A DNA stretch of 3,434 nucleotides. Source: a virus. Its lineage: Duplodnaviria > Heunggongvirae > Uroviricota > Caudoviricetes. Position 1 is the first letter of the stretch. Each line of letters starts with the position of its first letter. Of this stretch, positions 1 through 3,000 are shown piece by piece. Position numbers: made by a program. The stretch lies in the IMG/VR virus record IMGVR_UViG_2541047436_000025, one strand, 5' to 3'.

Positions 1-3000
1 CATGTATTCTCTATCGCCATTTTTTGCTCTGCGGCGATCTACAGATTCTCCGAAACGCTTCTCCATAAATAATTCATAGGCTGCTCGTTCATCCGATACT
101 GCTGCCAGTGATGCCAGCGCAATCCGTGCCAGCTCTTCCGCTTCTTCTGCTGGAAGCACAACGTTGCTACCCGGTCCGTATGTTTCGCGCCAATGCTGGA
201 TTGTCAGCAGTCGATCTTTGGTAATAGTGGTCATAGCTATTTCACCTTAATCTCAACATTTCGCAGCTTTAGCTCTACTGGCATGTCTGACTTTCCTGTT
301 AATGCTAATGCGAGATTTTCTGGAGTAATGAGAGCAGTTATTGTTTTCCCCATCGCCAGACGAATAATCATTCGTATTTCGCGATCGTCACATGCTCCTG
401 GTCGAACAATTGATATTTGTCCGTTCATCTCACTCTCCTTTGATGCGAATGCCAGCGACGCGTAATGCGTGTTCTAGGTCAATCAGGTAAAGCCAACTGC
501 CATTTTCTTTAGGTATCATGACATGTCGCTCATCTGCATTTATCGGGTGTCCATATCGAAGGTCGTAGCGAGTCGGTAATTGAACTTCCCGCGCTTCCAG
601 TTCAGCAATACGCTTGCTCCCATCAGAGATAACGCCTTCGTAATACTCACGCTGCTCGTTGAGTTGTGATTTTGCTTCTTCCAGTCCATCCAGCAAATCA
701 GCGATAATATCCGCTTCCCGATGACGGATGTGACGCTTAAACGCAGCAAGAGCCGCATCACAATCCCGTTCAGCATTTGGGCTGTCCGGGGTAGCCTGAT
801 ACCACGCCAGCGTCGATTGATAGTTTTGTGCTGCCTCACGCAGTGCCTGATAGTCAATCTTGCCCACTGGCTGCCTCCTTTGCCGGGATTTCTAACTTTT
901 GAGTGGTTGTATCAAATTCAAACAACTTAACCACGTCATCAAACAGGACATAATCACCATCAGGATCTTCAGTCATATCAGCGCCACAATCCTGACCGCA
1001 CGAGTCGCAACCTCCCATATCAAGCTCGTATCGCTTCAGGTTCGCGATATTTGATAAATTCAGCGCCAGTATAGCCAGATCATTAACCTCGTCTGCGATA
1101 TACCCTGCACCATGTCCATACATTTCAATGCGGGATATGATTTCTTCTACACGTTGTTTTGTGATCGTCATTTTTCTCTTCACTCCGATATACAAGGATT
1201 ACTACACCCCCTCTGCTGATTGCGCGAGCTGGATCCCCTGGTTCCATGCCGTCAATACCGAAGGCTTCGAAAAATGCATCTATTGCCTTCTGGCGTTGCT
1301 CCTGCTTACGGCGTTTATTCCATTTTTTCATGAACAACAGTGACAGCCATCGTCCGCTGCAGAACATGATGTAGAAATAACCAAGGAGCGCTAGGCCGGT
1401 GTTCAGGGCTGTATCGATCGTTATCGTGGTGTTGATGTTCACTTCACACCTCTCTGTTTGTTGATAAGTTCAATATCCTGCTGGCAACTGGCGCAAGCTC
1501 TGCATCCACGAACAGCCAGGCGTCGCCGCTCATCTATCGGATCGCCACACTCGCAACAATGAGTAGCAGATGGGGCATTACTATCGGATTTGTATTTTTG
1601 CAGGGAGAGATTGCGCTGCAATTCTTCGATTTCAGCGGCGTTGTCGATGATATCTGCCATTTTCCTTTCCTTCAGGCATGAAAAAAGGAGCCGAAGCTCC
1701 TTTGGTTTTAGAATTCGAATTGCCTTGCCCGCAGGCTTTTCAGCATTGGTCTGGCCCGCTGAACTACGAAACTCGACTGGTCAAGCCGTGCCGCCTCTCT
1801 CAGTAGCACATCTCTGTTCTTCGTCACCATGTAGATGGTCTCAAACGCAATGTCATACAGCTTGTTCGTGTATGAGGAGTTCAGCTCTTTCATGATCGGA
1901 TACAGGTGTTTGCTGAGGTCCTGGGCTTTTTCCATCCAGAGTTGCATGTAGCAGAGGAGGATGATTTCCTCGTCTGTGAATTGTTGCTGTGGTTCTGCTT
2001 GTGCCGACTGCATGTTGCGAAGTTTCTTTTCGCACTCGATGAAGTATCTGCGTATCTGTCGGCCTTTTTCGTTACGCTCTACCATCGCCGTTTCTTTGGC
2101 TGTATCGAGGGTAAGGTGGTAGTCTTTTTTCCCTCGCCCATAACCTATTTCCCGTTTCTGGGAAATAGCTATATAGTCCTGATTTTCAACGAATCCGTAC
2201 TCTTCAATACGTTCTGTAATCCACGATGCAAAGCGTTTACCTACTCCAAGAAAAGTATGTAAATCACGGGCATTAACGAGAAGAGTGGTTTCGTTGGCGA
2301 TAGTGCCGTTGAATACGGGGATGCGTTGACTGGTCATGATGACCTCCTTATTTGTTTAGTTTATAACCGCCAGTTAGTAGCTGGCGGTCGGGTGTCAACT
2401 GAGCCAAATAAGAAGCTCTGGGCATATTCCCCTTGCGGGTGTTGTATTACGCCTCTCCACCCGACCTTTGTACGGATGTAACTATGCCAAATTGCAGGCA
2501 TAAAAAAGCCGCAAAGCTATCGGGTGCGGAGACCGCTTATTTGTTCAGTGCGGTCAGTATGCGATAGCTCTGGAGGATTTGTCAATCAGCGGAATATTGA
2601 TGAACGGGTAACGGTAAATGCCTCATCCAGAAAATTAACGCAAATTCGCATCGCAAACTTGCGTTAATTATCTGAAATATCAAGTTAAATCCCCTTAAAT
2701 GTTTGGGGCACTATTGGGGCAAAATGTGGTTGTTTGGGGCACTATTGGGGCAAAATGTGGTTGTTTGGGGCATATTTGGGGCAAAAAAGAACGTATAAAG
2801 AACGGTGTAAAATTGATTTCTTCATGGTCAAAATGAGGTGTAACAGATTGAAAAATATATGCTCTTGGACGATCTTCGGTAATTCTGTGTTTTTAATGCT
2901 TCATGGTTTCAATATGTCCGTACATGGAATAATAAAGCACCAGAACTTTAGCCATTTCTAACCACTCCTCGTGTTATCTCTATTCCGTAGCGATTCGCTA

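Follow-up and report, generated by a model that had tools for sequence, protein, structure and literature searches.

Is a run of small genes at the non-integrase end of a prophage a silent and uncharted set, waiting for the phage genome to circularise, or is it expressed in the lysogen under a control of its own? We asked this of a 3,434-nt stretch of DNA from a tailed phage of the Caudoviricetes (IMG/VR record IMGVR_UViG_2541047436_000025), in which seven genes at 1-2337 read inward from the att junction; "the window" means this whole stretch. An original prediction, made from the sequence alone, had taken the seven for one block of delayed-early accessory genes that are cut off from their promoter in the prophage state, several of them without a recognisable family and plausibly serving host takeover or anti-defence. 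We find that the gene block itself is ordinary, and that the useful results are a warning about contiguity and a predicted RNA lock on ant, the antirepressor gene of an Stx2a phage. The explanation that we favour, with moderate confidence, takes three things together: a prophage end, an ant gene locked by a small RNA, and foreign genes joined on.

The attR end of an Stx2a prophage and the RNA upstream of ant

Window positions 1168-3434 match the attR end of the O157:H7 prophage Sp5 (VT2-Sakai, 933W) with 99.7-99.8% identity, and the Sp5 counterparts of the window genes are annotated as an antirepressor, a TraR/DksA-family protein and a DUF4752 protein. Judged by this identity, the window is the attR (right-hand) end of an Sp5/933W-type lambdoid Stx2a prophage in wrbA of Escherichia coli O157:H7. 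Over 1168-2905, again at 99.7-99.8% identity, it shares with the Sp5 right end (ECs_1244-ECs_1251; Z1503 and neighbours) ant, the traR-like gene, the DUF4752 gene, the control region, the arm repeats and the wrbA attR junction. The block is already known, being annotated as the right end in the best-studied Stx2a prophages, and holds genes of the lambda exo-xis type. The main finding concerns ant and the control region upstream of it, which comprise the following features (window coordinates):

1708-2337, minus strand: ant, a 209-aa antirepressor-family protein with an AntA N-domain and a P22_AR_C C-domain, 99.5% identical to Sakai ECs_1251
2343-2360, minus strand: target 2 (a2b2), box ACUAAACAAAUAAG at 2360 to 2347 running into the ant Shine-Dalgarno sequence AAGGAGG at 2349 to 2343; from sequence and covariation
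2378-2466, minus strand: small structured RNA with a three-way junction, Rfam sRNA-Xcc1 (RF02221); from cmscan
2502-2529, minus strand: terminator-like leader hairpin, CCGCA, 11 nt and UGCGG, then C and U6; read from the sequence
2536-2549, minus strand: target 1 or decoy (a1b1), box ACUGAACAAAUAAG at the predicted leader 5' end; 13 of 14 bases match the box at the ant ribosome-binding site (RBS), and from covariation
2556-2585, minus strand: sigma-70-type promoter TTGACA-18-CATACT (10 of 12 matches) with a predicted start at ~2549; from a promoter scan

Ant matches the Pfam families AntA (PF08346; 95.2 bits against a cut-off of 27) and P22_AR_C (PF10548; 36.3 bits against 22.4) and also phrog_377, "anti-repressor Ant" (E = 1.4e-97); these are family matches, and repressor binding by Ant is putative. 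The antirepressor of phi24B (PMC3064807) was rejected as its counterpart, being a different ant gene that lies near pR'.

Run on the whole window at E ≤ 1, cmscan reported sRNA-Xcc1 only, with no match to C4 (RF01695). The sRNA-Xcc1 match scores 69.1 bits against a gathering score of 53 (E = 1e-11) and covers model positions 1-87 of 87 from 2466 to 2378. Membership of the C4/IsrK families was dropped, as Rfam gave nothing besides sRNA-Xcc1. The Sakai chromosome carries a single copy of sRNA-Xcc1, at the same place. In uninduced EDL933 this RNA was recorded with 40,293 reads, 25,609 reads per kilobase per million and a ribosome coverage of 0.02, and the only more abundant non-coding RNAs were 6S RNA, signal recognition particle RNA and a C4 RNA (PMC5331693).

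The loop of the P3 arm, CUUAUUUG (2412 to 2405), forms the antisense element of the RNA: it is exactly complementary to CAAAUAAG (2354 to 2347), which leads into the Shine-Dalgarno sequence of ant. After the P1 stem comes GCCA. The box ACUGAACAAAUAAG recurs at the head of the leader (2549 to 2536), followed by the hairpin and U6. The duplex predicted between the RNA and the translation initiation region of ant has an energy of -35.3 kcal/mol, compared with -19.7 ± 3.7 kcal/mol for shuffled targets.

To judge this pairing across phages we used 102 loci, collected by scanning IMG/VR with the exact conserved core of the RNA. A perfect complement of the P3 loop of at least 7 nt was present in the phage's own RBS window at 49% of 45 distinct loci, as against 2.0% of non-cognate pairs, and in the leader for 61% of cognate but 8.3% of non-cognate pairs. 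Permutations that ignored the shared ancestry of the loci reached the observed mean in 0 of 20,000 trials, both for the RBS and for the leader. An NCC(A) tail follows P1 in ~53 of 68 distinct RNAs. The predicted pairing of the loop with the RBS and with the leader covaries across phages, as in c4-type antisense control, and this comparative evidence marks "sRNA-Xcc1" as the putative antisense lock of the Stx2a phage ant gene. Our literature search found no paper that ties the RF02221 family to antirepressor control.

The genes downstream of the RNA were classified by a Pfam scan of 72 proteins, namely the first downstream ORF of 71 of the first 80 loci and the window's Ant. Most of the matches were to the N-domains KilA-N (11), AntA (8), ORF6N (7), P22_AR_N (6), Bro-N (6) and Phage_pRha (4). 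At seven loci (L008, L011, L024, L050, L068, L085 and L086) the RNA is followed, ~120 nt downstream, not by an antirepressor but by an ORF of 83-85 aa without a Pfam match, and the RNA's own loop in this subgroup, GCAUGCGGC, still has its match, CCGCA(C/U), a few bases before the start codon. In the literature sRNA-Xcc1 accompanies symE cassettes in Xanthomonas and occurs in five tandem copies in Xylella. Because symE and the ~84-aa ORFs also follow the RNA, its cargo is not always an antirepressor.

We propose that ant is probably a self-contained, RNA-locked cassette built like immI of phage P1. The constitutive promoter at 2585-2556 would drive a leader that starts with box ACUGAACAAAUAAG and mostly ends at the hairpin and U6. 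Read-through, or a second candidate promoter of the extended -10 type (TGgCATAGT, 2489-2481), would then yield an RNA of the sRNA-Xcc1 class of ~81-89 nt, whose NCCA-like tail after P1 may direct 5' processing by RNase P, as for c4. Its P3 loop CUUAUUUG would pair with CAAAUAAG by the ant Shine-Dalgarno sequence and with the leader box, leaving Ant untranslated in the lysogen, and this loop/box pairing would give the phage an "address" of its own. The distal genes, beyond the ant terminator, would be transcribed at a low basal level, by the local promoter and by the wrbA promoter of the host reading across attR. On induction they would rise with phage copy number, or through N-antiterminated pL transcripts that cross attP after circularisation.

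The likeness to immI of P1 and P7 (promoter, a1b1, c4, a2b2, icd, ant; RF01695) lies in the promoter with an upstream target box, in a small structured RNA with a tRNA-like acceptor end, in a second target at the RBS of the gene that gates the antirepressor, and in an address that varies among phages. The window differs in its RNA family, RF02221 with no C4 match at E ≤ 1, and in having no icd-like leader ORF; its main pairing is made by one loop and a short junction segment, and its RNase P step and repression are putative. With immI of P22, where ant is accompanied by Arc, Mnt and the sar RNA, it shares the P22_AR_C C-domain of Ant and an antirepressor that is silent in the lysogen (predicted for the window). 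It lacks arc and mnt, and its control RNA lies upstream on the same strand, whereas the P22 RNA is an overlapping antisense transcript. The window RNA belongs by curated score to the family of Xanthomonas campestris sRNA-Xcc1 and, like it, sits on a mobile element. The Xanthomonas RNA was published as integron-borne and trans-acting or virulence-linked, whereas here and in the IMG/VR phages it forms the leader of an antirepressor gene with a covarying target.

The join inside the DUF4752 gene

All seven ORFs were confirmed at their predicted coordinates, on the minus strand and pointing away from the att junction, with spacings between neighbours of +2, +1, -14, -47, -4 and +47 nt from left to right. 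Besides ant, they and the stretch at which their parentage changes are:

1-234, minus strand: DUF551-family gene truncated by the window end to its first 78 codons; nin-type segment, 185 aa in draft contigs
237-428, minus strand: uncharacterised 63-aa ORF, phrog_1222; nin-type segment, 100% identical to a nin-region gene of FORC_044
430-867, minus strand: 145-aa Ead/Ea22-like protein (Pfam and PHROG); nin-type segment
854-1171, minus strand: uncharacterised acidic 105-aa ORF, phrog_3126; nin-type segment
1125-1442, minus strand: DUF4752 gene, a hybrid with an Sp5-type 5' part and a nin-type 3' tail (Pfam and allele comparison)
1219-1367, no strand: stretch of ~150 nt common to both DUF4752 copies, where the parent switches from nin-type to Sp5-type (allele comparison)
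1439-1660, minus strand: 73-aa TraR/DksA C4 zinc-finger protein (zf-dskA_traR; PHROG)

The original prediction had treated these genes as contiguous, and this part of it was not confirmed. Window positions 1-1200 are 99.9% identical to the nin region of another, Rac-like lambdoid prophage in the same O157 genomes, where the order is DUF4752, the 105-aa ORF, the Ea22-like gene, the 63-aa ORF and DUF551, followed by hokD, DUF968, RusA and Q. Positions 1-1200 and 1168-3434 thus match two different prophages. The join between them was absent from 5,426 of 5,426 finished E. coli genomes, where the closest match to 1175-1375 reached 98.5%, and was likewise not found in IMG/VR or in JGI metagenomes. 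Contigs from DNA runs of typical O157 strains are interrupted at 1219-1248 and again at 1338-1367, with the common piece at double depth. The switch point itself varies: it lies between 1218 and 1257 in RNA contigs and between 1257 and 1281 in draft assemblies, and the window is a patchwork of three switches, nin-type at 1188, 1206 and 1218, Sp5-type at 1257 and 1281, nin-type at 1290 and Sp5-type from 1368.

Because the join is absent from finished genomes and the switch base differs among assemblies, the seven-gene block is probably chimeric; we consider an assembly artefact likely, with repeat collapse inside DUF4752 during assembly as its most likely source. For the four leftmost ORFs the probable source is another prophage's nin region, in a genome of the same kind. 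The genuine Sp5 end block begins with ant, the lambda-Orf73-like traR gene and DUF4752; in finished genomes these are followed by a 72-aa gene, an Ea22-like gene and hokW/sokW. It too is a run of small inward-reading genes, from ECs_1251 down to ECs_1244. Left of 1168 the window differs from it in carrying the nin cassette of the other prophage, where Sp5 has ECs_1248, ECs_1247 (Ea22-like), ECs_1246 and hokW/sokW.

The strongest alternative is that the arrangement is real, homologous exchange within DUF4752 having joined the right end of Sp5 to the nin region of the other prophage; all seven genes would then truly follow attR in the source lineage. Only three NCBI draft contigs and, from RNA runs, several Logan contigs encode the exact hybrid DUF4752 protein. 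The draft contigs, at 65-78 kb and 99.91% identity to the window, speak for exchange, but they stop 2.6 kb beyond the join. The two DUF4752 copies are mutually inverted, in FORC_044 at a distance of ~280 kb, so that exchange would give an inversion of ~280 kb, and inversions between prophages are documented in O157. A similar join is also present in OkiPb01680, a natural deletion derivative. Set against this are the 0 of 5,426 finished genomes, the variable switch point with three switches within 150 nt of the window, and the sequencing runs: typical O157 DNA runs, and other RNA runs with the same organism codes, resolve only the parental paths, whereas the hybrid comes from Logan RNA contigs. 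We regard a real exchange as unlikely.

The OkiPb01680 locus (NZ_AP042506.1 1211501-1222774) retains just a ~6-kb remnant at wrbA. Its order, on one strand, is int, xis, two small genes, DUF551, the 63-aa ORF, a frameshifted Ea22-like gene, DUF4752, the traR-like gene, ant and attR, a natural deletion that joins the exo-xis side to the attR-end block.

The practical result is a warning about contiguity: the window and similar draft contigs very probably splice two prophages, and for this reason arguments from gene order in the window are unsafe.

Layout across attP and transcription of the block

From left to right, the window holds the seven minus-strand ORFs, then 570 nt in which no long ORF occurs, and finally a host stub with ymdF beyond it. 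Its features outside the coding block and the ant control region are:

1679-1703, minus strand: intrinsic terminator between ant and the traR-like gene, with an 8-bp stem AAGGAGCU/GGCUCCUU, a UUCG loop and a U run; from the sequence
2635-2667, no strand: 33-bp palindrome with perfect 9-bp arms TTAACGCAA / TTGCGTTAA, then UUUUCU on the minus strand; from the sequence
2700-2786, no strand: 31-bp tandem repeat in 2.8 copies with six TTGGGGCA boxes; from the sequence
2893-2997, minus strand: promoter-proximal stub of host wrbA, reading into the prophage, with a start site at ~2997, ATG at 2955 and 18 wrbA codons, then K-H-stop
2906-2912, no strand: att overlap GTTTCAA (attR junction), from the 7-bp site of AP005153 and comparison of attR, attP and attL
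3328-3434, plus strand: host ymdF, a KGG-repeat stress protein in a 35-aa allele with very high expression; from an ORF call and RNA runs

The att position has three grounds: the 7-bp site is annotated in the circular relative AP005153, the phage matches end at 2905-2918, and the attR, attP and attL sequences part ways on both sides of GTTTCAA. The predicted layout across attP stood up. In Sakai int and xis are present at the opposite, attL, end on the same strand, so that the window is indeed the non-integrase end. In AP005153 the order is ant (minus, 3541-4170), att (4708-4714), int (minus, 4736-6070) and xis (minus), which puts the block directly downstream of int in the circular phage. In lambda the comparison is with the sib/tI region and the b-region genes ea47, ea31 and ea59, delayed-early genes that are read from pL across attP. 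These genes share the strand of int and follow it directly across attP, and there too integration parts them from int. They encode unrelated proteins. In the window block ant, as the first gene, is served by a promoter and a predicted RNA control of its own, the wrbA promoter of the host reads in, and pL read-through is putative.

Is the block then cut off from its promoter in the lysogen, as had been supposed? For its proximal part it is not: besides the promoter at 2585-2556, there are RNA contigs that begin at ~2540 or at 2997. In RNA run X66 one contig ends at 2539 and the depth over 2552-2700 is zero, in keeping with a start near 2549. The contig of run X15 begins exactly at 2997 and passes attR, ant and the traR-like gene into DUF4752; 2997 is the wrbA start site, seen as the 5' ends of raw reads in the prophage-free strains of runs X22 and X24. 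Given these two contigs, the proximal genes have a local promoter as well as host read-in, and the stationary-phase wrbA promoter of the host may feed the genes of the phage end. Local or constitutive expression, which the original prediction had itself named as refuting it, is therefore seen for the proximal part. Z1503, the last 933W gene and presumably ant, is detectable in stationary phase on arrays and 4-fold higher in an rpoS mutant (PMC2907692). Control of ant by LexA, as in Gifsy phages, was considered and rejected, there being no LexA box near the promoter.

The delayed-early part of the claim partly held, for the distal genes. The strong terminator after ant (1703 to 1679), which we read from the sequence and which a simple scan did not list, stands before them. 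Z1501, probably the DUF4752 gene since its tag lies two before that of the last 933W gene, was scored at 27 in Luria-Bertani (LB) medium and about the same in nine other conditions; its rise (log2 5.1, ~34-fold) was confined to SOS-inducing antibiotics, under which early-left 933W genes rose too (PMC4048457). This supports distal genes that are linked to induction and is compatible with read-through across attP or with phage copy number. The local promoter and the abundant RNA upstream of ant tell against the same claim for the proximal genes.

Could delayed-early transcription nevertheless be the sole mechanism, with no working promoter in the prophage and with N-antiterminated pL transcripts running past int and attP after circularisation? 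We find this quite improbable. It accords with the position of the block on the int strand directly downstream across attP, for which the lambda genes are a precedent, and with a terminator after ant that would require antitermination. The Z1501 response fits as well, but phage copy number could equally explain it. In run X55 one contig is continuous from DUF4752 via ant to the attP junction; in X66, by contrast, the attP junction is present at high depth and yet nothing is covered between the arm repeats and the ant promoter (2552-2700). The attP form is visible in RNA runs as loose contig ends only. The remaining evidence is adverse, in that there is a local promoter and, in uninduced cells, a very abundant RNA upstream of ant and that RNA contigs begin at ~2540 or at the wrbA start site in runs without the attP junction.

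A more elaborate idea, to which we give as little credence, is that the block senses excision, with integration and excision rewiring this phage end and shifting ant from a locked to a read-through-driven state. In the lysogen the only transcription to reach ant would start at its own promoter or at that of host wrbA, and the small RNA would keep it shut. After excision, attP would link ant to N-antiterminated pL transcription that overrides the leader and ant terminators; the read-through would out-titrate the RNA and turn on Ant, the Orf73-like RNA-polymerase modifier and the distal genes. Collision of transcripts would silence the antisense sokW promoter further downstream. In Sakai hokW/sokW (L002 2265-2477) lies downstream of the block, with sokW antisense to the direction of attP read-through. 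An unexplained loss of sokW RNA on RecA-dependent prophage induction has been published (PMC8621323), and a sensor of this kind, if true, would account for it.

Less probable still is that the sRNA-Xcc1 homologue is a free-standing sRNA acting in trans on host mRNAs, or a leader structure that acts only in cis, so that the match to the ant RBS would have no regulatory role in trans: published work on Xanthomonas and Xylella does see the family as trans-acting or virulence-linked, the family also precedes symE in integron cassettes and ~84-aa ORFs without a Pfam match, and in the centroid fold the P3 region and the RBS of one transcript are paired, but the complementarity of loop to RBS and of loop to leader covaries over 45 distinct loops, which a host-directed sRNA would not need, and the link to antirepressor-type genes spans six N-domain families.

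We return to the RNA-locked ant at a prophage end with foreign genes joined on. Direct support for it comes from the gene identities, the layout across attP, the Rfam membership, the covarying complementarity, the RNA abundance and the contig ends. Several points weigh against it. The translational block, the RNase P processing and the route of induction are steps that we infer, and with no C4 match the likeness to P1 is one of mechanism and not of family membership. The permutations leave out shared ancestry. The RNA evidence from lysogens consists of contigs with flat depth, the raw-read RNA runs coming from strains without the prophage. Z1501 and Z1503 are assigned to DUF4752 and ant from tag numbering, and since Z1503 is detectable on arrays the lock would be leaky or act on translation only. 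The chimeric part has the three 65-78-kb draft contigs with the hybrid arrangement against it.

Between the ant promoter and att lie two elements that may bear on transcripts crossing the junction. The palindrome at 2635-2667 sits between the arm repeats and the ant promoter, and the RNA contigs of runs X63 and X64 end at 2649 and 2622, within or just beyond it; it could be a weak terminator of the lambda tI/sib kind for att-crossing transcripts, or a site for a protein or regulator. The TTGGGGCA boxes of the tandem repeat are probably arm-type sites for Int. The repeat is present in two copies in Sakai and many RNA and DNA contigs and in three in Xuzhou21, drafts and the window, so that its copy number differs between otherwise identical phages.

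Two further observations were made. A contig end at 1527, inside the traR-like gene, recurs in three RNA runs of three studies and was rejected as a transcript 3' end; it points to a k-mer common to orf73 paralogues. In a prophage-free strain reads fall on 1496-1610, with variants at 1525-1526. On the host side, the ymdF allele of the window is without one KGG repeat unit (3378-3403), prophage-free strains having 40 nt more there, and in several RNA runs the depth over ymdF is at least 100-fold that of its neighbours.

The genes of the block and what the RNA lock would mean

The seven genes are less obscure than had been thought. PHROG gives a family for seven of seven, and Pfam or RefSeq for five of the seven; among the complete ORFs only the 63-aa and the acidic 105-aa ORF are without a Pfam family, and both have PHROGs. 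The DUF551 label of the cut ORF comes from the RefSeq annotation of the full gene, its N-terminal piece at 1-234 having no Pfam match. What had been listed as a membrane protein without a family is DUF4752, named by profile search; its predicted model (pLDDT, the model's confidence score, 75.5) shows one long N-terminal transmembrane helix followed by a beta-hairpin. In the acidic 105-aa ORF just two Cys residues are conserved, and its AlphaFold2 (AF2) model (pLDDT 51.7) is too poor for a structure search. A search by sequence gave no relatives in the Protein Data Bank (PDB) for this ORF or for the Ea22-like protein.

The 73-aa protein matches Pfam zf-dskA_traR with 31.8 bits against a cut-off of 24.9 and has four Cys residues, and it is 71% identical both to lambda Orf73, over all 73 residues, and to the Sp5 exo-xis copy ECs_1170. 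With NCBIfam TIGR02419 it scores 52.6, under the cut-off of 59.7. Homologues of TraR, Orf73 among them, bind RNA polymerase and reprogram host transcription (PMC9239242). The N-terminal 108 aa of the 145-aa Ead/Ea22-like protein are 41% identical to lambda Ea22. The resemblance to the lambda exo-xis region (orf73, ea22) is thus one of homologous genes, but the window-type genes lie across attP or in a nin region and not between exo and xis, and Sp5 additionally retains its exo-xis copy, ECs_1170.

An anti-defence role found no backing. A PADLOC-DB profile search with all seven products at E ≤ 0.01 gave no match, and an NCBIfam search of the products returned TraR only; we dropped the assignment to defence or anti-defence, the genes being homologues of the lambda exo-xis genes orf73 and ea22. 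By these family matches the block is a second set of exo-xis/nin-type accessory genes and not an uncharted one.

What makes this phage end of interest is the RNA. An RNA that transcriptome and vesicle studies of enterohaemorrhagic E. coli (EHEC) have annotated as "sRNA-Xcc1" directly precedes the antirepressor gene of the Stx2a phage. If the lock is true, "sRNA-Xcc1" belongs to the circuit deciding on prophage induction in EHEC, and the many distinct loop and target addresses of the family would form a natural set of orthogonal riboregulators.

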